Shown here one piece after another: positions 8,083-55,793 of a DNA stretch of 64,000 nt. The position numbers and the translations under genes are program-made. This DNA comes from an uncultured Clostridia bacterium. Its GTDB lineage: Bacteria; Bacillota; Clostridia; Oscillospirales; Acutalibacteraceae. Under the pieces are notes generated by a model. That model had not been told where the DNA came from and made no database searches. It saw only the letters and a list, made by a program, of their open reading frames with translations. The DNA lies in assembly GCA_947585615.1 (NCBI GenBank), contig CANPXD010000001.1, forward strand, positions 7,115 to 71,114, written 5' to 3'. Position 1 is the stretch's first letter. Every line of letters starts with the position of its first letter.

Positions 8083-10110
8083 ATGCTGAATTTAAACAGT
8101 GATATTAAATACATCCGCGGCGTTGGTGAAAAAAGAGCCGAGCTTTTCAACAAGCTCGGCATTTTTGACGTGCGTTCGCTTCTTTGCTATTATCCGCGAA
8201 GGTATCAGGACTGGTCAAAGGAGAGGACTGTTGCTCAGTGCGTGAGCGGAGAAAATGTCTGTATAAAAGCGACCCTTATCACTCCTGTAAGAGAGCATCT
8301 GATAAAAAGGGGGATGACGGTTTACAAATGCAGTTTCACAGACGGCGAAACGGATATTCGTGTTACGATTTTCAACAACAAATATCTTGCAAAAGCGCTC
8401 AGGCAGTATAAGGAATATGTACTTTTCGGCAAGCTTGAAAAAAAATTGACCTTTGCCGAGATGAGTTCTCCTAAAATCGAGGAGGCGGAAAAAAACATCG
8501 GGATACATCCGATTTATTCTGCCACTGAGGGGCTTAATTCAAACGCGATCGGCAAAACAGTTAAAACGGCACTTGAAGCTCTCCCCCAAATTCCCGAAAC
8601 TCTTGACACACGGTTCAGGCTTAAATACGGTCTTGTTTCTCTTGATTTTGCAATCCGCCAGATACATTTTCCGAGTGATTTTGAAAGGCTTGATAAAGCG
8701 AAATACCGTCTTATTTTTGAGGAACTGCTTATACTTCAGCTGGGACTAATGAAGCTCAGGGGCAAAAAGAAAGCGTTATCGGGCGCAAGGGTAATAAGAA
8801 ATTACACCAACGAGTTTTACGCCCTTCTGCCGTTTTCTCCCACAAATGCGCAGAAGAGGGCAATAGACGAATGTATATCCGATATGAGCGGAAAATACGC
8901 TATGAACAGGCTCATTCAGGGAGATGTGGGGAGCGGAAAAACCGCTGTGGCGGCGGGGACGGTTTATACGTCTGTAAAAAACGGTTTTCAGTGCGCCCTA
9001 ATGGCCCCGACTGAAATACTTGCCGTTCAGCATACACAGACGATTTCAAAAATTCTGGCGCCGTCGAGTATTAAAATCGACCTGCTTACAGGAAGCACCT
9101 CCGTAAAGGAAAAACGTCTAATAAAGGAGCGTCTTGCAAGCGGTGAAACGCAGCTTGTAATCGGTACGCACGCCCTTATACAAAAAGATGTTGCATTCAA
9201 AAATCTCGGACTTGTGATAACGGACGAACAGCACCGATTCGGTGTAAACCAAAGGGCCGGTCTTGCAATGAAAGGTCACGGAGTACATACGCTCGTTATG
9301 AGCGCAACACCTATTCCGCGCACGCTTGCTCTTATGATTTACGGCGATCTTGATATTTCCGTTCTGGACGAGCTGCCCGCAGGCAGACGAAAGATACGCA
9401 CGGACGTCGTTGATTCGCGCTACCACGCGAGGATATATGAATTTGTCAGAAAAGCAGTTGAAAGAGGTGAGCAGGCCTATATCGTCTGCCCTCTTGTCGA
9501 AGAGGGAGAAAGCAACCTGCTGCCTGCGACGCAGTATGCCGAAAAGCTTTCCGAAACGGTATTCCGCGGCATAAATCTCGGTCTGCTGCACGGAAAAATG
9601 AAAGCGGACGAGAAAGAGAAAGTTATGGGCGCTTTCGTCCGAGGAGATATTAAAATACTTGTTTCAACCACCGTTATTGAGGTGGGAGTGGACGTGCCCG
9701 AAGCAACAGTTATCGTTATAGAAAATGCGGAGCGTTTCGGTCTGTCCCAGCTTCACCAGCTCAGAGGAAGAGTGGGCAGAGGGAATGCGCAGTCATACTG
9801 TATTCTTGTTTCGGACAGTAAAGGTGAAACGGCGCAAAGCAGACTTGCCGTTATGAAAAATTGCTCAGACGGATTTAAAATTGCGGACGAGGATCTGAAA
9901 CAACGGGGCCCCGGAGATTTTTTCGGCAACCGCCAGCACGGATTGCCCGAACTGAAAATCGCCGATATGCTCGGAGATACTGAAACGCTTTCGGTTTGCC
10001 GAAGGGCGGCAGGCGAAATTCTCGCGGAGGATTTTAATCTTGATAAGCCTGAAAACAGACCTCTTGCAGATGAAATTTCGGAAATGTTCAGAAATTCAGT
10101 ATCAAATTAA
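8083..10110 (+). CDS. recG: ATP-dependent DNA helicase RecG
   Basis: 675-aa ORF with GDVGSGKT (Walker A), TDEQHRFG, SATPIPRTL and QLHQLRGRVGRG motifs, plus an N-terminal wedge/OB region. Confidence 0.95.
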   Translation: MLNLNSDIKYIRGVGEKRAELFNKLGIFDVRSLLCYYPRRYQDWSKERTVAQCVSGENVCIKATLITPVREHLIKRGMTVYKCSFTDGETDIRVTIFNNKYLAKALRQYKEYVLFGKLEKKLTFAEMSSPKIEEAEKNIGIHPIYSATEGLNSNAIGKTVKTALEALPQIPETLDTRFRLKYGLVSLDFAIRQIHFPSDFERLDKAKYRLIFEELLILQLGLMKLRGKKKALSGARVIRNYTNEFYALLPFSPTNAQKRAIDECISDMSGKYAMNRLIQGDVGSGKTAVAAGTVYTSVKNGFQCALMAPTEILAVQHTQTISKILAPSSIKIDLLTGSTSVKEKRLIKERLASGETQLVIGTHALIQKDVAFKNLGLVITDEQHRFGVNQRAGLAMKGHGVHTLVMSATPIPRTLALMIYGDLDISVLDELPAGRRKIRTDVVDSRYHARIYEFVRKAVERGEQAYIVCPLVEEGESNLLPATQYAEKLSETVFRGINLGLLHGKMKADEKEKVMGAFVRGDIKILVSTTVIEVGVDVPEATVIVIENAERFGLSQLHQLRGRVGRGNAQSYCILVSDSKGETAQSRLAVMKNCSDGFKIADEDLKQRGPGDFFGNRQHGLPELKIADMLGDTETLSVCRRAAGEILAEDFNLDKPENRPLADEISEMFRNSVSN

Positions 10111-10282
10111 TATTTGAGAACACGTATTAGGAAATTTAAAACAGGGCGAAACGATCCATTCCGTTCAGCGTATGGAAATATCCGAAAAATAAATATCCGC
10201 CTGCCGGCAGACTTCAAAAAAACGGAACTGAATTTGCAGGCGTATATAAATACGGCAGAGCCGACAAAGGACGAAAACGCTA

Positions 10283-10320
10283 AAAGCCGCTTGAACATCA
10301 ACTCGACATTCAAGCGGCTT
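10283..10320 (-). repeat. Copy 1 of a repeated hairpin element; probable terminator of the ABC-F gene
   Basis: The minus-strand sequence is AAGCCGCTTGAATGTCGAGTTGATGTTCAAGCGGCTT followed by TTAGCGTTTTCGT. It is near-identical to 40870-40906 on the plus strand. Confidence 0.8.
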
Positions 10321-10473
10321 TCAAAATCTATAAGTCAATCGGGGAATGAATGGAATTCACTATATCTTAATATCATACACGGATAAGTTATAATTTTTAG
10401 TCATTTCGGCATATGCAAACCGCTTTATCGACAGTCTGAACGGGGCGAAAACAATCGTCTGTTACTTTTTGCG

Positions 10474-12081
10474 TCAGTATTTTTTGAGCTGGTCTTCGTC
10501 AAAGGTTTCAAGGAATTCGTCGTATGTTCCCTTGTGGTCAATCAGCTTGTCGCCCGACATCTCAATGATTCTGTCCGCCACGGTTTGTATAAACTGATGG
10601 TCGTGAGATGTGAAAAGAACCGTTTCGGGATAGCGGATAAGTCCGTTATTGAGTGCGGTAATCGATTCAAGATCAAGGTGGTTTGTCGGCTCGTCAAGCA
10701 CAAGAACATTAGCGCCGCTGAGCATCATTTTGCAGAGCATACATCTGACACGCTCTCCGCCCGAAAGCACTTGTGCCGTTTTGAGCGCGTCATCTCCGCT
10801 GAAAAGCATTCTGCCGAGCCAGCTTCTGATGTCTGTTTCAAGGGTCTGCGTTGTGTACTGACGGAGCCAGTCTATGAGATTGAGGTCAACTCCGTCGAAA
10901 TACGCGCTGTTGTCGCTCGGAAAATAGCTCTGCGAGGTGGTAACGCCCCATTTGAATTCACCTTCGTCCGGCTCAAGTTCGCCCATAATAATTTTAAAAA
11001 ACGTTGTTTTGGCAACGGCGTCTGAGCCTACAAAAGCAACCTTTTCCCTCGGATGAATCACAAATGAAATGTTGTCAAGCACTTTTCTGTCGCCTACTGT
11101 TTTGGAAATATGATCAACGCGCAGCAAATCATTTCCGCATTCTCTGTCAGGTTTAAAATCAACGTACGGAAAACGCCTTGAAGAAACGGGCATTTCTATC
11201 ATTTCAAGAGCGTCAAGCTGCTTTTTGCGGCTTGTCGCCTGCTTTGATTTTGAGGCATTGGCGCTGAAACGCTGAATAAAATCCTGAAGCTCTTTGATTT
11301 TCTGCTCGTTCTTTTTGTTCTGGTCGCGCTGCTGGCGCTGGCGCATCTGGGTGTATTCATACCAGAAATCATAGTTTCCGGCATACATCTGGATTTTGCC
11401 GAAATCAACGTCGCATATATGGGTGCAGACCTTGTTCAGAAAATGACGGTCATGTGAAACAACGATAACGGTGTTTTCAAAATCAAGCAGGAAGTTTTCG
11501 AGCCAGCGTATAGCCGATAAATCGAGATGGTTTGTCGGCTCGTCGAGCAAGAGAACGTCGGGATTTCCGAAAAGCGCCTTTGCAAGGAGCACCTTAACTT
11601 TCAAATCTGACGAAAGCTCCGCCATTTTAAGATAGTGAAATTCATCCGTTACCCCGAGCTTGTTAAGCATGAATTCGGCGTCCGATTCAGCGTTCCAGCC
11701 GTCAAGATCGGCAAATTCAGCCTCAAGTTCTCCGGCTTTTATTCCGTCTTCCTCGCTGAAATCGGGCTTTGAATAAAGAGCGTCTTTCTCCTCCATAATC
11801 TCAATAAGGCGGGGATTGCCCATAAGCACCGTTTTCACAACCTCGCAGTCGTCGTATTTGAAATGATCCTGTTCCAAAACGGACAGCCTTTCGCCGGGAG
11901 TCATAAAAACCTCGCCCTTCTGAGGCTCAAGCTCTCCGCTCAGAACCTTTAAAAAGGTTGATTTTCCGGCGCCGTTCGCGCCGATTATACCATAGCAGTT
12001 TCCCGGAGAAAACACAACGTTTACCCTTTCAAAAAGCGCTTTTCCCGCAAACTGCACCGTAACATTATTAGCCTGAATCAT
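10474..12081 (-). CDS. ABC-F family ATPase (YbiT-like, no membrane domain)
   Basis: 535-aa ORF with two NBDs (GANGAGKST; LLLDEPTNHLD and LVLDEPTNHLD) joined by a charged Q/K/R-rich linker. Confidence 0.9.
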   Translation of the reverse strand: MIQANNVTVQFAGKALFERVNVVFSPGNCYGIIGANGAGKSTFLKVLSGELEPQKGEVFMTPGERLSVLEQDHFKYDDCEVVKTVLMGNPRLIEIMEEKDALYSKPDFSEEDGIKAGELEAEFADLDGWNAESDAEFMLNKLGVTDEFHYLKMAELSSDLKVKVLLAKALFGNPDVLLLDEPTNHLDLSAIRWLENFLLDFENTVIVVSHDRHFLNKVCTHICDVDFGKIQMYAGNYDFWYEYTQMRQRQQRDQNKKNEQKIKELQDFIQRFSANASKSKQATSRKKQLDALEMIEMPVSSRRFPYVDFKPDRECGNDLLRVDHISKTVGDRKVLDNISFVIHPREKVAFVGSDAVAKTTFFKIIMGELEPDEGEFKWGVTTSQSYFPSDNSAYFDGVDLNLIDWLRQYTTQTLETDIRSWLGRMLFSGDDALKTAQVLSGGERVRCMLCKMMLSGANVLVLDEPTNHLDLESITALNNGLIRYPETVLFTSHDHQFIQTVADRIIEMSGDKLIDHKGTYDEFLETFDEDQLKKY

Positions 12082-12233
12082 TATTTTCCCTCCGCAATGA
12101 GCTGAAATACTTATATATTCTACTACACTTGTCTTTCAATTACAAGCAAAATTATATATGTTGATTTTATTCTTTATTAATTGTATAATAGATTTACTTG
12201 TATGCGATAAAATTATACATTCGAGGCTTTCTT

Positions 12234-12884
12234 ATGGATATAAAAATTTCCCCTTCAATGCTGGCAAGCGATTTTGCCAATCTTGAGGCAGAACTTAAAA
12301 AGTGTGAAAGCGCAGGAGCGGATATGATTCACCTTGATGTTATGGACGGCTGTTTTGTGCCGAACATAACAATAGGCGCACCTGTTATAAAGGCTATGAA
12401 AAAGGTCTGCGCCCTGCCGTTTGACGTTCATCTTATGATTGAAAATCCGCTTGAATATATTGACGATTTTGCAGACGCGGGAGCGGATATCATCACGTTT
12501 CATGTTGAAAGCAAAAGCGACACGCAAAAAACAATAGAAAAAATCAAGGTATGCGGCTGTAAAGCATCGCTTTCGGTAAAACCCGATACCGATATAAAGA
12601 CTGTTTTTCCGTATGCCGGCTCTCTTTCAATGGTGCTTGTCATGACGGTTGAGCCGGGATTCGGAGGTCAGAGCTTTATGCGCGGAATGCTTCCCAAAAT
12701 AGAAAGGCTTCGCGCCGAATTCCCCGAAATGGACATAGAGGTGGACGGGGGAATAAACACCGAAACAATAAAAGAATGTGCCGCGGCAGGGGCAAATGTT
12801 TTTGTGGCGGGTTCTGCCGTTTTCAACAGCAAAAGTCCTGCCCAAACAATAGCGCTGCTTAAAAAGAATGCCGGTAAAATATGA
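12234..12884 (+). CDS. rpe: Ribulose-phosphate 3-epimerase
   Basis: I moved the start to ATG 12234 (MDIKISPSMLASDF...). Motifs HLDVMDG.FVPN and VEPGFGGQ.F are present. Confidence 0.93.
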   Translation: MDIKISPSMLASDFANLEAELKKCESAGADMIHLDVMDGCFVPNITIGAPVIKAMKKVCALPFDVHLMIENPLEYIDDFADAGADIITFHVESKSDTQKTIEKIKVCGCKASLSVKPDTDIKTVFPYAGSLSMVLVMTVEPGFGGQSFMRGMLPKIERLRAEFPEMDIEVDGGINTETIKECAAAGANVFVAGSAVFNSKSPAQTIALLKKNAGKI

Positions 12885-13945
12885 AGAAAAAGCGATTTTA
12901 TAAAAATGTGCCGCGAAATCAGACCTGGACCGAAGCGGAACAGGGAAGGCAAATCGATTTTGCAGATAAGTATGATGAAGGCGGTATTTATTCGGATAAA
13001 TTTGATTATCTGCGTCCCGAAACCAAAAAAAAGAAAAAGAAACTCACGCCGCAGAATGTGCGCCGTTTTTTCAAAAAAGCAGGCGTTGTTTTGCTCTGCG
13101 TCGCTGTTTTCTGTGCCGGATATACCTGTATGGATGTCTATATGATAAGAAAAGGTATGCCCGATAGATCCGCGCTGCAGGGAGAAGCACCCGACAGCGC
13201 GCTCAATGAAATTTCACTCGGACTGAGCGCAGAATATATTGAAAGCGTTTCACTTGACGGGAGCGTTATGCTTGATGCCGTGCTGTCCCAGGCAGAGACG
13301 GAGGGGTGCAACAGCGTAGCGTTTGATATAAAGAGAAGCGAAGGCTCGCTTGGTTACCGCAGCGAGCTTTCCGTTGCCGATGCTTACGGCACCGTTGCGT
13401 TTCCCTCGGAGAATCTGAAAGCCTCTGTTGAAAAACTAATGAAAAGCGACATTCTCACAGTCGGCATTGTCTGCTGTTATATGGACAATATTGTTCCTGC
13501 GAATGATGCCTCGTCAGCCGTTCCCGGAAGCGGAGGAGAGCCATACAGGGACACTGCCGGAAATATGTATCTTAATCCGGATTCCCAGTATGCCTACACA
13601 TATATAAAAGATATTATTTCTGAGACATACGCAATGGGCGTTACGGTTTTTGTACTGACAGGCGTCGATCTGCCTGATGAGGTAAGCGACGGTTACAATG
13701 ACGGATTTGAATCCCTTGCGCAACGGCTGTATTCGGATATAGGGAATGATATAAAGCTGTTAAGGGCGGTAAATGTCCGTCTCGGTGAAAATGCCGTTCT
13801 TGACGACAGCACCGAAATCGCCGATAAATTATCAGATGATCTCGGCGACGATGGAATTTATTTTATTTCCGCATCGGGAGACAGAGCATTAATAAAAGAA
13901 AAACTGGAGGAAAGCGGAGTATCACGCTATATTCTTGCTGATTGA
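12881..13945 (+). CDS. Hypothetical membrane-anchored protein, possibly with a DUF4015-like glycoside-hydrolase-fold domain
   Basis: 354-aa ORF with a lysine-rich N-terminus, one TM helix (VVLLCVAVFCAGY) and an extracytoplasmic domain. Its ATG overlaps the rpe stop (ATGA at 12881-12884). The domain assignment is from memory and is weak. Confidence 0.6.
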   Translation: MKKKRFYKNVPRNQTWTEAEQGRQIDFADKYDEGGIYSDKFDYLRPETKKKKKKLTPQNVRRFFKKAGVVLLCVAVFCAGYTCMDVYMIRKGMPDRSALQGEAPDSALNEISLGLSAEYIESVSLDGSVMLDAVLSQAETEGCNSVAFDIKRSEGSLGYRSELSVADAYGTVAFPSENLKASVEKLMKSDILTVGIVCCYMDNIVPANDASSAVPGSGGEPYRDTAGNMYLNPDSQYAYTYIKDIISETYAMGVTVFVLTGVDLPDEVSDGYNDGFESLAQRLYSDIGNDIKLLRAVNVRLGENAVLDDSTEIADKLSDDLGDDGIYFISASGDRALIKEKLEESGVSRYILAD

Positions 13946-13947
13946 TT

Positions 13948-14805
13948 ATGAGAAAAATTATTTTCGCAGTTTTTGCGGCGGCTTTTTGCATAATTGCTGC
14001 TTTCTCTGCCAATGCGGCAGAGCCTTCAAATGAGACGCCGCTTTCAAACGTTCCGTATCTTGAGGAAATTGAATTTGAAAACGCTGTGATAGACGGCGGC
14101 TTTGTCAGCGGACAGACTGCTTTTTCAATCACACTTGACGATCCCGATACAAGTCCGCGGCTTCGCAGCTACAAAATAAACGGAGACGCCAACATTTTTG
14201 TGACGTATAATTATGATAATATGCACCGGCAGACAGGCGTTTATGTAACGCTTTCTTTTGAAAGCGGCAGCGTTATCTATACATTTAACTACTCGAACGC
14301 AAGGGACTTCAAAATTACGGACAATGCCGATCTGTCTGCTCTGTCGTGCGATTACGGAGAGGTACAGCCTGCTATTAATTCAAACGATACCGTTTATAAG
14401 CTGTATATTCCGTCTGATCTTACACAGCTTAACATCACGCCTGTGACCGCAGATACAAACGCCTACTGCTATCCTGCAAATATCAGCATGGGACTTAATG
14501 ATGAACAGGAGCCGGAGCTGAGCTTTACTGTCAACGCTTCTGACGGTTCTACAAAAATGTATGAATTCAAGGTGCGCCGTATTGACAAAACGATTGAAGA
14601 AGTAAAGCTTGAAATGGCACAGCCTGATTACGTTTCCTTCGCCAGGGGCGAGCTTTTTTATCAGCGGCCGGCAGTTATAATTGCTTCTGTTTGCGCTGTG
14701 GCAGGAGTGATTATTCTGTTTGTTTTTCTTTCAGTAACACGCAGAATTATCGTAAATCCTCGGGATAAAGACGAAAAACCGTTTTATTCGGTCAGCAAAG
14801 AATAA
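13948..14805 (+). CDS. Hypothetical secreted protein with a cadherin-like beta-sandwich-type domain and a C-terminal TM anchor
   Basis: The ORF track gives a TTG start at 13942; ATG 13948 gives MRKIIFAVFAAAFCIIAAFSANA, a signal peptide. A C-terminal TM helix (VIIASVCAVAGVIILFVFL) is present. The domain call is tentative. Confidence 0.6.
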   Translation: MRKIIFAVFAAAFCIIAAFSANAAEPSNETPLSNVPYLEEIEFENAVIDGGFVSGQTAFSITLDDPDTSPRLRSYKINGDANIFVTYNYDNMHRQTGVYVTLSFESGSVIYTFNYSNARDFKITDNADLSALSCDYGEVQPAINSNDTVYKLYIPSDLTQLNITPVTADTNAYCYPANISMGLNDEQEPELSFTVNASDGSTKMYEFKVRRIDKTIEEVKLEMAQPDYVSFARGELFYQRPAVIIASVCAVAGVIILFVFLSVTRRIIVNPRDKDEKPFYSVSKE

Positions 14806-14839
14806 TGTTTAATAAAAACGGAGGAAAGGAAGTGAGCCA

Positions 14840-16213
14840 ATGGATTTTGAGGAAATGAAAGAACGCATAGACTGCCTTTATGAAGAGCGTAATTTAACCG
14901 AGCTTAAGAACTATCTCAACGATATTAATTTTGCCGATATGGCTCAGCTTCTTGAAAATGTTTCCGATGAGCGGAAAAGGATATTTTTATTCCGACTGCT
15001 CACAAAAGAAAACGCAGCAGACACCTTTGTTGAATTTGACGCGGATACGCAGGAAAAGCTTATTCATGCATTTTCGGATAACGAGCTTCGCGAAGTACTG
15101 GATGAAATGTATATTGACGATACGGCGGATATTGTTGAGGAAATGCCCGCCTCGGTCGTTAAGCGTATTCTTAAAAATACAGACAGGGAAACCAGAGAGG
15201 CAATAAACACGATTCTTAAATATCCGGAGGACTCGGCGGGATCAATTATGACCCCTGAGTTTATTGACCTTAAAAAGGATATGACCGTTGAGGACGCGTT
15301 CAAAAGAATACGCAGAACGGGACTTGACAAGGAGACAATATACACCTGCTATGTCACTGACGCTTCGCGGCATCTTATAGGCGTTACAACGGTCAAGGAA
15401 CTTCTGCTTAACGATTACGAAGATATTATTGAGGATTTTATGGAAACAAACGTAATTTCCATAAACACTCTTGACGACCAGGAAACAGCGTCGAATGCGC
15501 TTTCAAAGTACGACTTTCTCGCAATGCCCGTGGTTGATATGGAAAACAGACTTGTGGGCATAATAACGGTAGACGACGCTATCGACGTTATTCAGGAGGA
15601 AAACACCGAGGATATTCAGAAAATGGCGGCTATTACGCCGACAGATACTCCGTATCTGAAAACAGGCGTTTTGGAAACGTGGAAAAAGCGTATTCCGTGG
15701 CTTTTACTGCTTATGATTTCCGCGACCATCACAAGTCAGATCCTCACTACGTTTCAGAACAAGCTTGCCGCCGCGTCGGTACTGGTTGCGTTTATTCCGA
15801 TGCTTATGGATACGGGAGGAAATTCGGGCGGCCAGGCGAGCGTAACCATTATCCGTTCACTCTCGCTCGGAGAAATAGGTCTTAAAGATATATTCAAAGT
15901 CATCTGGAAGGAAATCAGAGTCGGTTTTATCTGCGGAGCGTCGCTCGGTATCGTCTGCTTCGCAAAGCTTATGCTGTTTGACAGAATCGTGCTCGGGAAC
16001 AGTGCAATTTCGCTTTCTGTTTCAGTTGTTGTCTGCCTGACGATTCTATTTGAAATTGTCGCGGCAAAAATAATCGGCTGTACGCTGCCGATTATTGCAA
16101 AAAAAATCGGTTTTGATCCTGCCGTAATGGCAAGTCCGTTTATAACAACGATAGTCGATGCGATTTCACTTCTTGTTTATATTGCCTTTGCGGTTGCGAT
16201 TCTAAGAATTTAA
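14840..16213 (+). CDS. mgtE: Magnesium transporter MgtE
   Basis: 457-aa ORF with an MgtE N-domain, tandem CBS domains and a C-terminal TM domain containing PMLMDTGGNSGGQAS. Confidence 0.95.
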   Translation: MDFEEMKERIDCLYEERNLTELKNYLNDINFADMAQLLENVSDERKRIFLFRLLTKENAADTFVEFDADTQEKLIHAFSDNELREVLDEMYIDDTADIVEEMPASVVKRILKNTDRETREAINTILKYPEDSAGSIMTPEFIDLKKDMTVEDAFKRIRRTGLDKETIYTCYVTDASRHLIGVTTVKELLLNDYEDIIEDFMETNVISINTLDDQETASNALSKYDFLAMPVVDMENRLVGIITVDDAIDVIQEENTEDIQKMAAITPTDTPYLKTGVLETWKKRIPWLLLLMISATITSQILTTFQNKLAAASVLVAFIPMLMDTGGNSGGQASVTIIRSLSLGEIGLKDIFKVIWKEIRVGFICGASLGIVCFAKLMLFDRIVLGNSAISLSVSVVVCLTILFEIVAAKIIGCTLPIIAKKIGFDPAVMASPFITTIVDAISLLVYIAFAVAILRI

Positions 16214-52237: not shown

Positions 52238-53548
52238 ATGAAAAGGTATATAAAATCGTTCATCTGTGTTTTGATGGTGAGTATGATCGCTTTGCCCGCC
52301 GGTATCAGCGCGTACGCGGAAGAAAGCGGGGACTATAAATACACAACCGGAAGCAACGGAAACGCTGTAATCACAGGTTACACCGGAACAGACACGGATG
52401 TGGTTGTACCGTCGTCACTTGACGGTTTTCCTGTAGAGGAAATCGGGCGAAGAGCTTTTGCAGGCAACAAAACAATCAAAAGCATAACGGTTTCCGAAGG
52501 CATTACCGTAATAAACAGCTCCGCGTTCTCCGGTTGTTCTAACCTGCAAAAGGCGGTGCTTCCCGAAGGACTGCTGGAGCTCAAGGATTGTGCTTTTCAA
52601 AGCGACAGAAATCTTGAAACAATCAATTTTCCGTCGACGCTTACAACGATTGGAGCGAGTTGCTTTTACGATGATCTTAAACTTACCAAGGCCGTTATCC
52701 CCGGAGGCGTTAAGATATTGGGTGAAAACGCGTTTCGTTTCTGCAACGCTTTAACGGAAATAACGATAGAAGAAGGCGTTGAGGAAATAAAAAGCGGAGC
52801 GTTTTATGAATGCCCAAAAGTGTCAAAGCTTGTTTTACCTTCAACTATGAAAATAATCGGTCGCGACGCGTTGGTACTGTCTGCGAATTTAACGTATATT
52901 ATTGTGCCGGACGGAATTGAGAGCATCGGCAGTCAAGGTATCGGCTTCAGAAGAACATTTGTGTTTGAAAACGACGATGATCCGTATGTTGTGCCTGTAA
53001 CCGATCTGGTGCTTTACGGAAAGCCGGGCAGTGTTGCCGAGGCGTATGCAAAACAAAACGCAATGACATTTAAAGATTCGTCCGAACTGTTTAACGTAAC
53101 CTACAAAGGCGCTTCTCTGAGAGTCAACAATCCCGGAATGCGATTCGGATTCAGCCTTGAATGCGGGGATCTCGCGCTTGAGGACGCATACGAATCCGAA
53201 ATAGGATTTTTGTATTCCTATTCGGAAAGTAGTGCCGAAAAGCTTACGCTTGAAAACCGGGGGAAGGAAGGAGTAAACAAAATAATAGCCGTCAACAGTT
53301 CGGAATCGGGGAATATCGTATCCTATAATCTTGTGTTTACAAAGATCCCCAAGGAAAGCTACGCAGAAAAAATATCAGTCAGGGGCTATGCGGTCATTGA
53401 CGGCAGAGTATATTATACCGAACCTGCAACAGACTGCCTGAATGATATAGCACAGCGGATACTGAGCGATGATAAACTGGACGGCGGCACTAAGGACGCG
53501 CTCCGGAAAACGTTTGACATTCAATACCTGAAAGGAGGGAACATTTAA
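52238..53548 (+). CDS. Secreted BspA-type leucine-rich-repeat protein
   Basis: 436-aa ORF with a signal peptide (MVSMIALPAGISAYA). About 8 tandem repeats of roughly 23 aa follow the pattern I..I.I.EGVT.I...AF..C..L..V.LP. A C-terminal non-LRR beta-rich domain follows. Confidence 0.85.
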   Translation: MKRYIKSFICVLMVSMIALPAGISAYAEESGDYKYTTGSNGNAVITGYTGTDTDVVVPSSLDGFPVEEIGRRAFAGNKTIKSITVSEGITVINSSAFSGCSNLQKAVLPEGLLELKDCAFQSDRNLETINFPSTLTTIGASCFYDDLKLTKAVIPGGVKILGENAFRFCNALTEITIEEGVEEIKSGAFYECPKVSKLVLPSTMKIIGRDALVLSANLTYIIVPDGIESIGSQGIGFRRTFVFENDDDPYVVPVTDLVLYGKPGSVAEAYAKQNAMTFKDSSELFNVTYKGASLRVNNPGMRFGFSLECGDLALEDAYESEIGFLYSYSESSAEKLTLENRGKEGVNKIIAVNSSESGNIVSYNLVFTKIPKESYAEKISVRGYAVIDGRVYYTEPATDCLNDIAQRILSDDKLDGGTKDALRKTFDIQYLKGGNI

Positions 53549-53655
53549 TGAAAGATAAGTACATAAAGCCAGAGACAGAGTTCGAAACGTTCAGAACATC
53601 GGACATAGTAACCACAAGCGGCGAACCTGATACAGATGTTGAATGGGGCACCTAA
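53548..53655 (+). CDS. Small peptide A (35 aa), RiPP/lasso-precursor-like, not in the ORF track
   Basis: The product is MKDKYIKPETEFETFRTSDIVTTSGEPDTDVEWGT. The ATG shares one base with the TAA of the LRR gene, and AAAGGAGGGA lies 8 nt upstream. It is a paralogue of the peptide at 53734-53862. Confidence 0.65.
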   Translation: MKDKYIKPETEFETFRTSDIVTTSGEPDTDVEWGT

Positions 53656-53667
53656 TCATTAAAAAAG

Positions 53668-53703
53668 AAAGACGGCGGTTGAATTATTCAATCGCCGTCT
53701 TTT
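53668..53703. terminator. Bidirectional terminator between the two convergent peptide genes
   Basis: AAAGACGGCGGTTGAAT / ATTCAATCGCCGTCTTT forms a near-perfect hairpin of about 17 bp. It is flanked by an A-run on the left and a T-run on the right. Confidence 0.85.
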
Positions 53704-53733
53704 AAATAGTATTGTTTTGGGGACAGTTTAGAA

Positions 53734-53862
53734 TCAGTCGAGATCTTCGTCTCCGTGATCGACCTCTCCGTATCCGCCGTCACCGAAGCCGCTTGTTGTA
53801 ATAACGTCGGCAGTTATAAATTCTTCGATTTCGGAAACCGGCTTATCGTATGATTTTTTCAT
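53734..53862 (-). CDS. Small peptide B (42 aa), RiPP/lasso-precursor-like, not in the ORF track
   Basis: The product is MKKSYDKPVSEIEEFITADVITTSGFGDGGYGEVDHGDEDLD. AAGGAGG lies 8 nt upstream of the ATG. The first 25 residues align gap-free with peptide A. Confidence 0.65.
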   Translation of the reverse strand: MKKSYDKPVSEIEEFITADVITTSGFGDGGYGEVDHGDEDLD

Positions 53863-53911
53863 GCTGACAACCTCCTTTTAAGCAGTTTAATTATGCAATG
53901 CTTAGTCCGAC

Positions 53912-53986
53912 TGGCACCCCAAGCAGGAATCGAACCTGCATCTAATCCTTAGGAGGGACTTATTCTATCCGTTGAACTATTGGGGC
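53912..53986 (-). tRNA. tRNA-Arg, anticodon CCU, CCA encoded
   Basis: The reverse complement GCCCCAATAGTTCAACGGATAGAATAAGTCCCTCCTAAGGATTAGATGCAGGTTCGATTCCTGCTTGGGGTGCCA folds as a cloverleaf. The anticodon loop is CTCCTAA and the T-arm is GCAGG-TTCGATT-CCTGC. Confidence 0.9.
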
Positions 53987-54004: not shown

Positions 54005-54033
54005 ATTATATATTAAGTAATGTTCAATGTCAA
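54005..54033 (-). promoter_or_regulatory. Consensus sigma-A promoter for tRNA-Arg(CCU), probably also driving peptide B
   Basis: On the minus strand: TTGACA (54033-54028), 17-nt spacer, TATAAT (54010-54005). The -10 hexamer ends 18 nt before the tRNA 5' end. Confidence 0.7.
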
Positions 54034-54456: not shown

Positions 54457-54569
54457 GCCAGATGTTTGAGAAATAATAGAATATATGCTTCTGTCGGAAA
54501 TACCAAATCCATATATGGTTTTTCTAAAAAAGCAGGCAAATATTGTTTCTTATCAAAAAGGAGATTAAG

Positions 54570-55793
54570 ATGATTAACGAATCAGGCGTTGCATCTGTAA
54601 GGCACATTTCACGTGTCGTAGCGGCAACGGTAATTGCGTTTCTTCTTATCGTATTTACTTTTGCCGCAAATGCCTTTGCAGGTATCGCGGGAGAGTACAA
54701 TGTCGTTATCAACGACAACGGTTATGAATACACAATTACAACAGACGAAACGGAACCAATCGAAATTCTCAACAAGGCAAATATTACCCTCGGTCCGAGA
54801 GACTTGCTAAGCATAGCCGATTTCAGAGCAGGATCGGGCGGTACAATAGTAATTGACAGATTGAATACAATCAACGTCAGTCTTAACGATTTAATTAAAA
54901 CATTTGAGGTTTATGCGGACACCGTGGAGGAGGCCTTTGCGGAAACGGGTATTGATACCGATGGCTGCCGCATCAACTACGACGGTTCTGCTCCCGTTGA
55001 AAACGGTATGGTGATTACTGTTCAGACGCCTAAGACTGTTACAATCAATGCGGACGGAAAAGTCATAAGAATCAGCGCGATTAATGCCACGGTTTCCCAA
55101 ATTTTATCGGTAGCCGGAATTGAACTCGGCGAAAATGACTATACCGAGCCGTCAGCGGACGCGACTGTCAGCGATGAAACGGTCATAGACGTTTACAGAG
55201 TTGCGTTTAGAACGAAAACAGAGACTGAAAAAATTCCTTACGAAACAATCAAAAAAGACGATTCAGACATCGAAAGAGGCACAGTCCGGATTGAAACACA
55301 GGGCAAGGACGGTGAAAAATCCGTAACGTACAGTGTTAAATATATAAACGGTCTGGCTGTCGAGCAGAAGGAACTTTCATCAACTGTGGTGAAAGAGCCT
55401 GTAACAGAGATAAAGCGCGTCGGTACAAAGAACGCTGAAACAGTACCCAACGGTGTTGACAGCTACAACGGATTTTATGTAGGGCAGGTAATTAACGGAA
55501 AATATACGCATTACTGTGCCTGTGCCGTATGCAACGGAAATTCAAGGGGTATAACAACCTCGGGCAAAAAAATTTACAACGGTATGGATAATCCTTATTA
55601 TATTGCCTGCAACTGGCTTCCTTTAGGTTCAGTTGTTGAGATCGGAGGCATAGACTATACTGTTGTTGACCGCGGCGGAAGCGGGCTTTCAAAGACGGGA
55701 AGAATCGATATATTCACTCCGGAGGGACATTCCGCCTGCTATAAAAAGGGAACGGGCGTGTGCACGATAACGATTGTACGGCTTGGCTGGTAA
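54570..55793 (+). CDS. YabE/RpfB-like cell-wall protein (DUF348 repeats, G5 domain, C-terminal 3D domain)
   Basis: I set the start at ATG 54570 behind AAAGGAG. It has an N-terminal TM anchor, DUF348-like repeats, a G5 domain (EKIPYETIKKDDSDIERGTVRIETQGKDGEK) and a 3D domain (GSVVEIGGIDYTVVDRGG...IDIF). Confidence 0.85.
   Translation: MINESGVASVRHISRVVAATVIAFLLIVFTFAANAFAGIAGEYNVVINDNGYEYTITTDETEPIEILNKANITLGPRDLLSIADFRAGSGGTIVIDRLNTINVSLNDLIKTFEVYADTVEEAFAETGIDTDGCRINYDGSAPVENGMVITVQTPKTVTINADGKVIRISAINATVSQILSVAGIELGENDYTEPSADATVSDETVIDVYRVAFRTKTETEKIPYETIKKDDSDIERGTVRIETQGKDGEKSVTYSVKYINGLAVEQKELSSTVVKEPVTEIKRVGTKNAETVPNGVDSYNGFYVGQVINGKYTHYCACAVCNGNSRGITTSGKKIYNGMDNPYYIACNWLPLGSVVEIGGIDYTVVDRGGSGLSKTGRIDIFTPEGHSACYKKGTGVCTITIVRLGW

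Follow-up and report, generated by a model that had tools for sequence, protein, structure and literature searches.

Two convergent open reading frames, too short to appear in a standard gene list, lie between a leucine-rich-repeat gene and a tRNA gene in the 64,000-nucleotide stretch of an uncultured Clostridia genome analysed here (contig CANPXD010000001.1; hereafter "the window"), and the question they raise is whether they are real genes and, if so, whether they encode orphan lasso-peptide precursors, as was proposed in a first-pass annotation of the sequence. To answer this, we first re-examined the locus, which contains the following features:

52238-53548, plus strand: a secreted LRR_5 (BspA-type) protein of 436 aa with an N-terminal signal-like sequence, whose C-terminal ~165 aa (53045-53545) form a conserved, unannotated domain.
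53531-53540, plus strand: the Shine-Dalgarno sequence of peptide A, AAAGGAGGGA, 7 nt before the ATG.
53548-53655, plus strand: the peptide A gene (35 aa), with the leader module MKDKYIKPETEFETFRTSDIVTTS (53548-53619), the tail GEPDTDVEWGT (53620-53652) and the stop codon (53653-53655).
53667-53703, no assigned strand: a bidirectional intrinsic terminator shared by the two convergent peptide genes.
53734-53862, minus strand: the peptide B gene (42 aa), with the leader module MKKSYDKPVSEIEEFITADVITTS (53862-53791), the tail GFGDGGYGEVDHGDEDLD (53790-53737) and the stop codon (53736-53734).
53871-53877, minus strand: the Shine-Dalgarno sequence of peptide B, AAGGAGG, 8 nt before the ATG.
53912-53986, minus strand: tRNA-Arg(CCT), directly upstream of peptide B, with which it may be co-transcribed, ending at the shared terminator.
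54005-54033, minus strand: a sigma-70-type promoter sequence upstream of the tRNA and peptide B unit, predicted from its match to the consensus alone (TTGACA, 17 nt, TATAAT; 12 of 12).

The observation itself was confirmed. Both ORFs are present with the translations given previously, and the ATG of peptide A (53548-53550) shares base 53548 with the TAA of the LRR_5 gene (TAATG); the only discrepancy was a trivial one, in that the Shine-Dalgarno spacer of peptide A is 7 nt rather than the 8 nt first given. Residues 1-25 of the two peptides align without gaps, with 14 of 25 identical, and the shared motif occurs nowhere else in the six frames of the window. The intergenic hairpin has a 17-bp stem (53667-53683 paired with 53687-53703) and a 3-nt loop, flanked by an A-run upstream and a U-run downstream; the 84-nt segment 53653-53736 folds at -27.3 kcal/mol (z = -5.5), and 0 of 200 shuffled sequences folded as well. 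An Rfam search of the locus returned only the tRNA above its family threshold (63 bits; also called by ARAGORN), the other matches, including those on the hairpin, being sub-threshold chance hits of which the best aligned to the 3' end of the CsrC model, and an explanation in terms of an RNA element was rejected. The neighbouring genes were likewise as described: the LRR_5 protein (Pfam LRR_5, 1.5e-45), an HTH_3/XRE repressor, a PASTA kinase and the tRNA.

To test whether the ORFs might have arisen by chance, we searched for homologues. Pfam and NCBIfam scans returned no family for either peptide, even at E <= 10. A word-indexed protein search with peptide B alone gave only 2 hits and a three-sequence profile gave 7, but an exhaustive profile search of representative sequences revealed 870 clusters (at 50% identity) at E <= 1e-3, nearly all of 33-60 aa, from gut and rumen Clostridia. 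These share the motif MKxxYxKPxxEIxEFxxxDVITTS(G), followed by a hypervariable, acidic and Gly-rich tail (22% Gly, 22% Asp+Glu, with Cys in only 3 of 149 tails). In addition, a hand-made degenerate DNA pattern (35 bits) found at least 120 loci in species-representative genomes (numbered with the prefix L below), almost all inside a Met-initiated ORF of 30-65 aa. A Shine-Dalgarno core was present upstream of 116 of 131 genes, against a background of 8.5%. Homologues P0004, P0013 and L050 carry the same EPDTD[VI]xWG tail as peptide A, and the tail of peptide A differs from its L050 relative by 4 synonymous and 0 non-synonymous changes. The peptide A gene is called in independent metagenome contigs, while the exact peptide B protein is found on 5 metagenome contigs, and the one strain-level substitution inside it (53788) is synonymous. 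We rely on these tail and strain comparisons rather than on pN/pS of the leader block (0.30), which is partly circular because the search pattern fixes 9 of 20 codons. No family member was found in plasmid or phage collections.

These data also allowed us to reject two other explanations. The possibility that both ORFs are debris of a longer decayed gene, which had been named beforehand as a refuting condition, is ruled out by the fact that each has its own Shine-Dalgarno sequence and ATG, and by conservation of the same 30-60-aa size across many genera. A frameshift or read-through extension of the LRR gene is ruled out because the gaps and frames vary and because an independent Shine-Dalgarno sequence is present in 89% of family genes. 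The family occurs in several scattered copies per genome: Ruminococcus flavefaciens ND2009 has L109 (two copies), L120 and L125, and CALEPT01 has L048 (two copies) plus L060. Cultured carriers include R. flavefaciens ND2009 and YAD2003, Eubacterium coprostanoligenes ATCC 51222 and Porcipelethomonas ammoniilytica. Single sequences are seen on 1000 or more contigs, placing these peptides among the more common small ORFs of gut and rumen Clostridia, yet every source calls them "hypothetical protein", and literature searches for the motif, PF14907, ScmC and the enzyme combination found no description of the family.

We next asked whether the peptides are lasso precursors, the reading first proposed on the basis of the MKKxYxKP N-terminus, a Thr two residues before the conserved Gly25, and a Glu at position 8 (A) or 9 (B) counted from that Gly. 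This interpretation was only partly supported. The conserved-leader and variable-tail layout holds, and Y5-x-x-P8 and T22-T23-S24|G25 are nearly invariant in the family, placing Thr at -2 and -3 before the conserved Gly. Moreover, when the family profile was aligned using hhalign with 18 predicted or known lasso precursors, columns 1-16 aligned with a probability of 67% (P = 5e-5), although this similarity is short and only moderately significant. Beyond these columns, however, the resemblance ends: the leader is about 4-5 residues longer than lasso leaders, and the spacing from Pro to the junction is 17 residues, against 13 in clostridial lasso leaders. Gly occupies core position 1 in 85 of 139 tails, but an acceptor Asp/Glu at positions 7-9 occurs in 57%, no more often than in neighbouring three-residue windows (50-67%). 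Only 45 of 139 tails (32%) are formally lasso-compatible, 32 of 139 are 14 residues or shorter, and peptide A, whose core had already been suspected of being too short to thread, would have a 3-residue tail after Glu8. No NCBIfam lasso precursor model matches either peptide.

Consistent with the earlier claim that the window contains no maturation enzyme, tblastn found no HprK-like, PqqD, PF14907 or S26-like gene within it, and the only SGGxDS PP-loop lies at the N-terminus of a 359-aa ORF that we read as MnmA-like. To determine whether related peptide genes are linked to such enzymes, we clustered and annotated neighbours at 124 related loci. In 16 of these the peptide gene sits next to at least one gene of a cassette, and 4 carry all five: an HprK-like P-loop protein (best NCBIfam hit ScmC, 1e-8 to 2e-10), a PqqD recognition protein (PF05402 at 9e-14, above the gathering score; present in 8 loci), a soluble S26 signal-peptidase-like protein (1e-6), an ABC exporter and a PF14907 nucleotidyltransferase (2.7e-41). 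These frequencies are lower bounds, since only 8 kb was examined per locus; about 87% of the sampled loci show no cassette gene within those 8 kb. The operon order is the same across L024, L048, L049, L082, L104 and L108. To judge from sequence, the enzymes look active: GxSMxP, HR and GDN are conserved in the S26-like proteins, which have no N-terminal TM segment, and the SGTGKST P-loop is conserved in the HprK-like proteins.

No recurrent Asn-synthetase-like cyclase or transglutaminase-like B2 was found at the 16 loci, where the five-gene operon is flanked by housekeeping genes. Among the 38 other ORFs of the cassette loci, the only Pfam families matched by more than one ORF were Chromate_transp and Response_reg, although only the top 25 of 66 singleton families were inspected. 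It remains the case that the cassette PqqD protein is closest to lasso B1 models, albeit below their cut-offs (1.6e-7), and that HprK-like and nucleotidyltransferase genes are typical accessories of Firmicutes lasso clusters (PMC7533575; PMC6993621). Nevertheless, the idea that the peptides are orphan lasso precursors, processed in trans by a cyclase with B1/B2 encoded elsewhere in the genome, is largely refuted at the family level and we consider it very unlikely. The alternative that had been offered alongside it, a distinct and undescribed peptide family, is the one that the evidence favours.

The cassette raised a further possibility, namely that the peptides are unmodified bacteriocin-like or pheromone-like molecules whose N-terminus is simply an export leader removed during ABC-dependent secretion, with tails that act on other cells as antimicrobials or quorum signals, and with HprK-like and PF14907 proteins serving immunity, regulation or an unrelated function. 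The layout of conserved leader and hypervariable tail in several copies per genome, the dedicated ABC exporter and peptidase, and an AgrC-type HATPase_c_5 kinase upstream in loci L008-L010 would be in line with this. However, the tails are short, strongly acidic, Gly-rich and neither amphipathic nor cationic, unlike known bacteriocins; the leader ends in T-S and has no double-glycine motif; and the 555-aa ABC protein aligns to the bacteriocin_ABC model only from about residue 140 and so lacks the C39 peptidase domain. In addition, a PqqD recognition protein is normally tied to modification enzymes, and this reading leaves the coupling to surface proteins and the tail motifs on anchored proteins, both described below, unexplained. 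We therefore regard it as doubtful.

The first-pass annotation had listed the LRR gene merely as one of the genes around the peptides, but our analysis suggests that it is not an incidental neighbour. Of 106 peptide genes with informative upstream sequence, 65 (61%) lie directly downstream, on the same strand, of a secreted multidomain protein belonging to the same neighbour cluster as the LRR_5 protein, with a median gap of about 19 nt. The part shared by these proteins is the C-terminal ~275 aa, and an alignment of the C-terminal domain has invariant GLRFGF, YGFVY, NxVFTxI and RxYxxxDG motifs. A word-indexed search with the C-terminal domain of the LRR protein gave no hits, profile searches against PDB sequences, Pfam and NCBIfam gave nothing meaningful, and a structure prediction of the native protein was confident only in the LRR part, with pLDDT below 50 for the C-terminal domain. 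Furthermore, tail motifs recur at the C-termini of adjacent envelope-anchored proteins, with 8 genuine matches at score >= 25 against 1.25 expected.

Because the upstream secreted protein, not the cassette, is the most frequent conserved neighbour (61% against about 13% of loci), it is possible that the peptide is an unprocessed small partner of that protein (a subunit, a folding or secretion helper, or an inhibitor), its N-terminal module binding the C-terminal domain directly, and that the cassette is relevant only to a minority branch of the family. The short gaps, and the overlapping stop and start in the window, fit stoichiometric co-expression; the peptide's N-terminal module and the protein's C-terminal domain are the conserved halves of otherwise variable partners; and in one subgroup the upstream protein carries an S8 protease domain, making a role as inhibitor or substrate conceivable. 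Against this, the upstream proteins carry Sec-type signal sequences while the peptide has none, so the two would be in different compartments unless the peptide is exported. Peptide B and about 39% of family genes with enough upstream sequence have no such upstream protein, cassette loci without it exist (for example L019 and L104), the leader resembles RRE-bound lasso leaders, and this view does not explain why tails are hypervariable or why they are shared with anchored proteins. On balance we think it unlikely.

Taken together, what the analysis establishes is that both genes are real and conserved, that the family exists, that the gene linkages hold, and that no lasso enzyme was found in the window or as a recurrent neighbour at the related loci; recognition of the leader by an RRE, the cleavage site, any modification, export and binding of the tails to the C-terminal domain are all inferred. 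The explanation that we favour, although we hold it to be no more than about as likely as not, is that these are leader-dependent, exported linear peptides. In this view, the conserved 24 N-terminal residues act as a leader, of which the first ~16, an amphipathic beta-strand-like YxxPx[IV]E...F segment shared with Firmicutes lasso leaders, would bind a PqqD-type recognition protein. The T-T-S|G junction, with nearly invariant small residues at -3 and -1 (T22, S24), fits the rule for type I signal peptidases, and the soluble S26-type peptidase of the linked cassettes may cut there, although the leader is acidic and has no hydrophobic h-region, so that it fits only the cleavage-site rule, and S26-type leader peptidases are not an established RiPP component. 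At the family level, the features of a generic RRE-dependent RiPP precursor, with a conserved leader, a variable core, an adjacent PqqD-type protein and putative modifying enzymes, were found in the 16 of 124 loci, but in the window both precursors are orphans, one of them coupled to the LRR_5 surface protein; any maturation and export cassette must then lie elsewhere in the genome, and action in trans is assumed.

The product would most likely be a strongly acidic linear peptide, possibly phosphorylated and/or glycosylated, and not a lasso; the predicted unmodified tails have monoisotopic masses of 1204.4884 Da (A) and 1852.7023 Da (B). Phosphorylation of a C-terminal Ser, as in paeninodin, cannot be general, as many tails, including that of peptide B, contain no Ser or Thr (25 of 139 lack both). 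If the HprK-like protein modifies the peptide at all, its target might be the TTS motif itself, which would conflict with a simple picture of a discarded leader. The released tail would appear to be a short C-terminal recognition motif, since the same motifs end adjacent lipoprotein-, TM- or SLH-like-anchored linker proteins and the peptide gene is translationally coupled to the secreted protein. We infer from gene order and motif sharing only that the tails are ligands of its C-terminal domain, acting in docking, release or signalling at the cell surface.

A more far-reaching and tentative version of this idea, which we consider possible rather than likely, is that the family defines a new kind of system combining two things. 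The first would be a RiPP-like class that has descended from lasso clusters but lost lasso formation, with an RRE-bound leader removed by a soluble S26 signal-peptidase-type enzyme and with HprK-like and PF14907 tailoring. The second would be a peptide-based surface docking code, in which the hypervariable motifs exist in a free form (the exported peptide) and a tethered form (at the ends of anchored linker proteins), and act as ligands of a previously unrecognised C-terminal domain on secreted adhesins, proteases and other enzymes, controlling their attachment to the cell surface and their release from it. If the linked cassette does mature the peptides, this would be a RiPP-type pathway with an unprecedented leader protease and would show how lasso clusters can evolve into something else, which bears on genome mining, where such loci are currently flagged only as generic "RRE-containing". 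The tight coupling to BspA-type LRR proteins, S8 proteases and other surface proteins, together with the shared tail motifs, also gives a testable way into how anchor-less surface proteins of these abundant commensals are retained or released, and into the function of a widespread unannotated domain.

Of the systems already described, the closest are the paeninodin/pseudomycoidin-type lasso clusters of Firmicutes (A, HprK-family kinase K, PqqD-like B1, transglutaminase-like B2, NTP-transferase N, ABC exporter D and Asn-synthetase-like cyclase C). In the pseudomycoidin cluster, ordered C-A-K-B1-B2-N-D, PsmK phosphorylates the precursor Ser and the PsmN NTP-transferase is required for hexosylation (PMC6993621). 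The two share a short precursor that begins MK-x-[WY]-x-x-P-x-[IV]-E, Thr close to the leader end followed by Gly, the host group of gut and rumen Clostridia, and a gene order of precursor, HprK-like protein, PqqD and protease, then exporter and nucleotidyltransferase. In the family described here, however, no cyclase or B2 protease was found and an S26 signal-peptidase-like protein occupies the protease position; the leader is about 5 residues longer and has a conserved DVITTS block that lasso leaders lack; there is no conserved ring-acceptor residue; the tails are shorter, hypervariable and often without the C-terminal Ser that is the kinase target in paeninodin and pseudomycoidin; and the gene is tightly coupled to surface-protein genes. 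The SynChlorMet (Scm) peptide-modification cassette is a more distant relative: the HprK-like protein gives its best NCBIfam hit to ScmC (TIGR04249; 2e-10 and 1e-8) and is followed by a PqqD-like protein, but the scores are far below the family cut-off of 125 bits, and none of the recurrent or annotated neighbours is a radical SAM/SPASM enzyme. In the case of the cohesin-dockerin-type non-covalent surface assembly of Ruminococcus and Clostridia, the comparison is an analogy for the inferred docking only: secreted multidomain enzymes or adhesins with a conserved C-terminal module are encoded next to envelope-anchored linker proteins, but here the presumed ligand is a C-terminal motif of 6-12 residues, not a folded cohesin, and the C-terminal domain has no dockerin match. 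Finally, multi-precursor RiPP systems such as prochlorosins and NHLP/Nif11-type precursors differ in leader sequence and enzymology, there being no LanM or cyclodehydratase here, and in that the cores of the present family are Cys-free and acidic and its precursors far shorter, but they are similar in having many scattered precursor genes per genome that share one highly conserved leader, carry very diverse C-terminal parts and lie, for the most part, remote from any modification enzyme.

We first confirmed that both of the small genes described in the first-pass annotation are present in the window exactly as reported. The features of the locus are as follows:
52238-53548 (+), a 436-amino-acid LRR_5 protein gene
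53548-53655 (+), peptide A, 35 amino acids, MKDKYIKPETEFETFRTSDIVTTSGEPDTDVEWGT
53667-53703, a hairpin with a 17-bp stem and a 3-nt loop, lying between the two peptide genes
53734-53862 (-), peptide B, 42 amino acids, MKKSYDKPVSEIEEFITADVITTSGFGDGGYGEVDHGDEDLD
53912-53986 (-), tRNA-Arg(CCT)
54033-54005 (-), a predicted promoter that matches the sigma-70 consensus perfectly (TTGACA, 17 nt, TATAAT)
54543-55793 (+), a 416-amino-acid protein with DUF348 and G5 domains

The ATG of peptide A overlaps the TAA of the LRR_5 gene and is preceded, 7 nt upstream, by AAAGGAGGGA, while peptide B has AAGGAGG 8 nt upstream of its ATG. The calculated monoisotopic masses of the unmodified predicted tails are 1204.4884 Da for peptide A (GEPDTDVEWGT) and 1852.7023 Da for peptide B (GFGDGGYGEVDHGDEDLD), and those of the full-length peptides are 4051.888 Da and 4565.059 Da, respectively. 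The hairpin between the two genes is preceded by an A-run and followed by a U-run, and the 84-nt segment containing it folds at -27.3 kcal/mol with z = -5.5, so that it is a bidirectional terminator. A search against Rfam identified only the tRNA at this locus, together with sub-threshold chance matches, two of them on the terminator hairpin. The tRNA sits directly upstream of peptide B, which lies 49 nt downstream of it on the same strand, behind the consensus promoter and before the shared terminator, so that a small protein-coding gene may be co-transcribed with a tRNA. The DUF348/G5 protein, which is transcribed divergently from the tRNA and peptide B unit, has a C-terminal region that looks to us like a 3D/RlpA-type domain, a cell-wall-associated architecture. 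When all six reading frames of the window were searched, the motif shared by the two peptides was found nowhere else.

To test whether these are genuine genes, we searched for relatives. Neither peptide matches any Pfam or NCBIfam model, and a word-indexed protein search found a few relatives. However, an exhaustive profile search of 1.84 billion representative proteins identified 870 clusters at E <= 1e-3, nearly all of them 33-60 amino acids long. The only long protein among the top profile hits (P0010, 374 amino acids) is a repetitive low-complexity sequence that matches the leader profile in 5 short stretches, and is probably spurious rather than a member of the family. The family consensus is MKKxYEKPExEIxEFxxEDVITTS(G), followed by a hypervariable tail with a median length of 17 residues. 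This tail is 22% Gly, 14% Asp and 8% Glu; Lys and Arg are rare, Cys occurs in only 3 of 149 tails, and 104 of 149 tails have an aromatic residue in the last six positions. Using a degenerate DNA pattern for the leader (about 35 bits), we found at least 120 loci in species-representative genomes, and virtually every match lies in a 30-65-amino-acid ORF that starts at a Met 2-5 codons before the Tyr. Of 131 genes, 126 start with ATG and 116 have a Shine-Dalgarno core upstream, against a background of 8.5%. Moreover, the tail of peptide A differs from its relative in L050, one of these loci, by 4 synonymous and 0 non-synonymous changes, in codons that were not part of the search pattern. The same arrangement of peptide B, peptide A and LRR_5 gene recurs in independent metagenome samples, in which the only substitution inside peptide B is synonymous.

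The hosts are almost all gut or rumen Clostridia (Oscillospiraceae, Ruminococcus, Eubacterium and Lachnospiraceae), and include cultured R. flavefaciens ND2009 and YAD2003, E. coprostanoligenes ATCC 51222 and Porcipelethomonas ammoniilytica. Family loci L015, L108 and L043 come from metagenome-assembled genomes labelled Prevotella, Alistipes senegalensis and Gastranaerophilaceae but, since the rest of the family is found in Clostridia, these short contigs are probably binning contaminants rather than true occurrences outside Clostridia. No family member was found in plasmid and phage collections. Although some exact sequences occur on 1000 or more contigs, public sources name family members only ‘hypothetical protein’, and no paper in the library searched contains the motif. 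Some loci hold tandem arrays of two or three family peptide genes (L019:2481-2891, L097:1208-2492, L020:2196-2466 and L123:3310-3572), with near-identical leaders and different tails within one locus; in L019 and L097 the array lies directly next to the HprK-like gene described below.

Turning to the gene neighbourhood, we called ORFs in 125 non-redundant loci, sampled as 8-kb segments, and clustered them. Two associations stand out. The dominant neighbour is a large secreted protein encoded directly upstream on the same strand, which was observed for 65 of the 106 peptide genes that have enough upstream sequence (61%), with a median gap of about 19 nt. The LRR_5 protein of the window belongs to this cluster. 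While the N-terminal parts of these proteins vary (S8 protease with Fn3_assoc/CHB_HEX_C_1 and LRR_5, LRR_5 alone, Flg_new repeats or Ig-like repeats), they share the C-terminal ~275 amino acids. Within the window’s subgroup, alignment of this region defined a conserved but unannotated domain of ~165 amino acids (53045-53545 in the window, residues ~270-436 of the LRR_5 protein) with invariant GLRFGF, YGFVY, NxVFTxI and RxYxxxDG motifs. The domain has no Pfam, NCBIfam or PDB-sequence match, and a single-sequence AlphaFold model was unreliable there, with a pLDDT below 50. In several loci, very large RHS/YD-repeat proteins flank the module of S8-LRR_5 protein, peptide and lipoprotein (L003:445-5535 and 9545-15739; L008:1633-6678), and an AgrC-type HATPase_c_5 kinase lies upstream in L008-L010 and L012, hinting at a polymorphic-toxin or signalling context for that subgroup. 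In L009 (13294-20111) and L011 (5576-12393), a defence-island-like stretch lies just downstream of the peptide module, comprising a weak SIR2_2 hit, a KAP NTPase, an AAA_15/AAA_21 plus OLD-TOPRIM protein followed by a UvrD helicase (a Gabija-like pair), and an FRG-domain protein.

The second association is with a five-gene cassette. In 16 of 124 loci the peptide lies next to one or more of its genes; eleven loci have at least 2 of the four core genes, 8 have at least 3, and 4 have all five, frequencies that are lower bounds given the length of sequence sampled. In most of these loci the cassette follows the peptide gene directly. The cassette genes are:
an HprK-like P-loop protein of ~246 amino acids (TIGR04249 ScmC at 1e-8 to 2e-10), with a conserved SGTGKST motif
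a PqqD protein of ~86 amino acids (PF05402 at 9e-14), with weak hits to lasso_PqqD models
an S26 signal-peptidase-like protein of ~142 amino acids (TIGR02228 at 1e-6), with GxSMxP, HR and GDN conserved and no N-terminal membrane anchor
an ABC exporter of ~555 amino acids that lacks a C39 peptidase domain
a PF14907 nucleotidyltransferase of ~370 amino acids (2.7e-41)

The gene order is constant across loci, the operon is flanked by unrelated housekeeping genes, and no Asn-synthetase or transglutaminase family recurs there. The window itself has no homologue of the four specific cassette genes, and its only SGGxDS PP-loop lies at the N-terminus of a 359-amino-acid ORF, which we read as MnmA-like.

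A possible lead on the role of the tail came from the lipoproteins encoded downstream of the peptide gene in the S8/LRR_5 subgroup, which end in DGWI[ND]KWY, the same motif that ends some family peptides. When we systematically compared each peptide tail with the C-termini of all neighbouring ORFs, we found 8 genuine matches at a score >= 25 after two self-matches were removed, against an expectation of 1.25 from shuffled pairings. Shared motifs include DGWIxKWY, NQTPWG and IELPF[VI]P, and the anchored proteins lie at L123:3535-4086, L061:3923-4432, L099:446-1252, L078:6709-7566, L048:5380-5919, L089:5575-6135 and L108:4228-4695. Every matching protein is anchored to the envelope, by a lipobox, by an N-terminal TM helix or by what we read by eye from the sequence as SLH-like (S-layer homology) domains, followed in each case by a long low-complexity linker and then the tail motif. 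The recurring module is therefore a secreted protein with the conserved C-terminal domain, then the small leader peptide, then an anchored linker protein that ends in the same motif, although the window lacks the anchored partner. We infer, as a hypothesis and as the weakest step in our argument, that the tails are short C-terminal ligands, free or tethered, of the conserved domain, and that they govern surface attachment or release.

Whereas the genes, the family and its gene linkages were observed directly in sequence, the mechanism that we propose for the peptides is inferred throughout, including recognition, cleavage, modification and export. In this view, the amphipathic N-terminal segment of the leader would bind the PqqD protein. 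The nearly invariant T-T-S|G junction has small residues at -3 and -1, which is the specificity rule of type I signal peptidases and suits the soluble S26-like enzyme, and the ABC protein would export the product. The HprK-like and PF14907 proteins may phosphorylate and glycosylate the peptide. However, 25 of 139 tails, that of peptide B included, have no Ser or Thr, so the target could be the TTS motif itself, or there may be no general modification. Most precursor genes are remote from any cassette in the sequence sampled, and genomes carry several scattered copies; under this model maturation would have to act in trans, as in other multi-precursor systems.

Taken together, these data confirm the observation made in the first-pass annotation but support its interpretation only in part: the leader is lasso-like, the precursors are orphans and the family is undescribed, but they are not lasso precursors. 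The two genes are members of a very common, unannotated peptide family, whose linked enzymology and coupling to surface proteins match no described class that we could find. We regard it as an RRE/leader-dependent peptide system. It remains possible, though we consider it unlikely, that it represents something more novel, namely a new RiPP-like class combined with a peptide-motif surface docking system.

To compare the family with lasso peptides in detail, we used predicted clostridial lasso precursors (PMC7533575, Table 3), which begin MKxWxxPx[IV]EELxIxETAx|G. The first ~15 positions line up residue for residue with this family ([WY]-x-x-P-x-[IV]-E...[IF]), but hhalign between the two alignments matched only columns 1-16, with a probability of 67% and P = 5e-5. 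Downstream of this, the family has about 5 extra residues and its own DVITTS block. Nor is the lasso core rule a feature of the family, since Asp/Glu at positions 7-9 occurs in 57% of tails, no more than in neighbouring windows (50-67%), only 45 of 139 tails are formally compatible, and many tails are too short. The accessory genes are nevertheless those typical of Firmicutes lasso clusters: in rumen genomes HPr-kinase, PqqD and ‘uncharacterised nucleotidyltransferase’ genes accompany 58%, 46% and 30% of lasso clusters, respectively. In B. pseudomycoides the cluster order is psmC-A-K-B1-B2-N-D, where the kinase phosphorylates the C-terminal Ser of the precursor and the NTP-transferase-like PsmN is required for adding hexose to the phosphate (PMC6993621). 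The cassette described here reads A-K-B1-[S26]-D-N, and thus has the same skeleton, but it has no cyclase, and an S26-type peptidase stands where B2 would be. We conclude that the system works partly like a lasso cluster, through an inferred RRE-guided handling of a leader peptide, but that it is not a lasso system.
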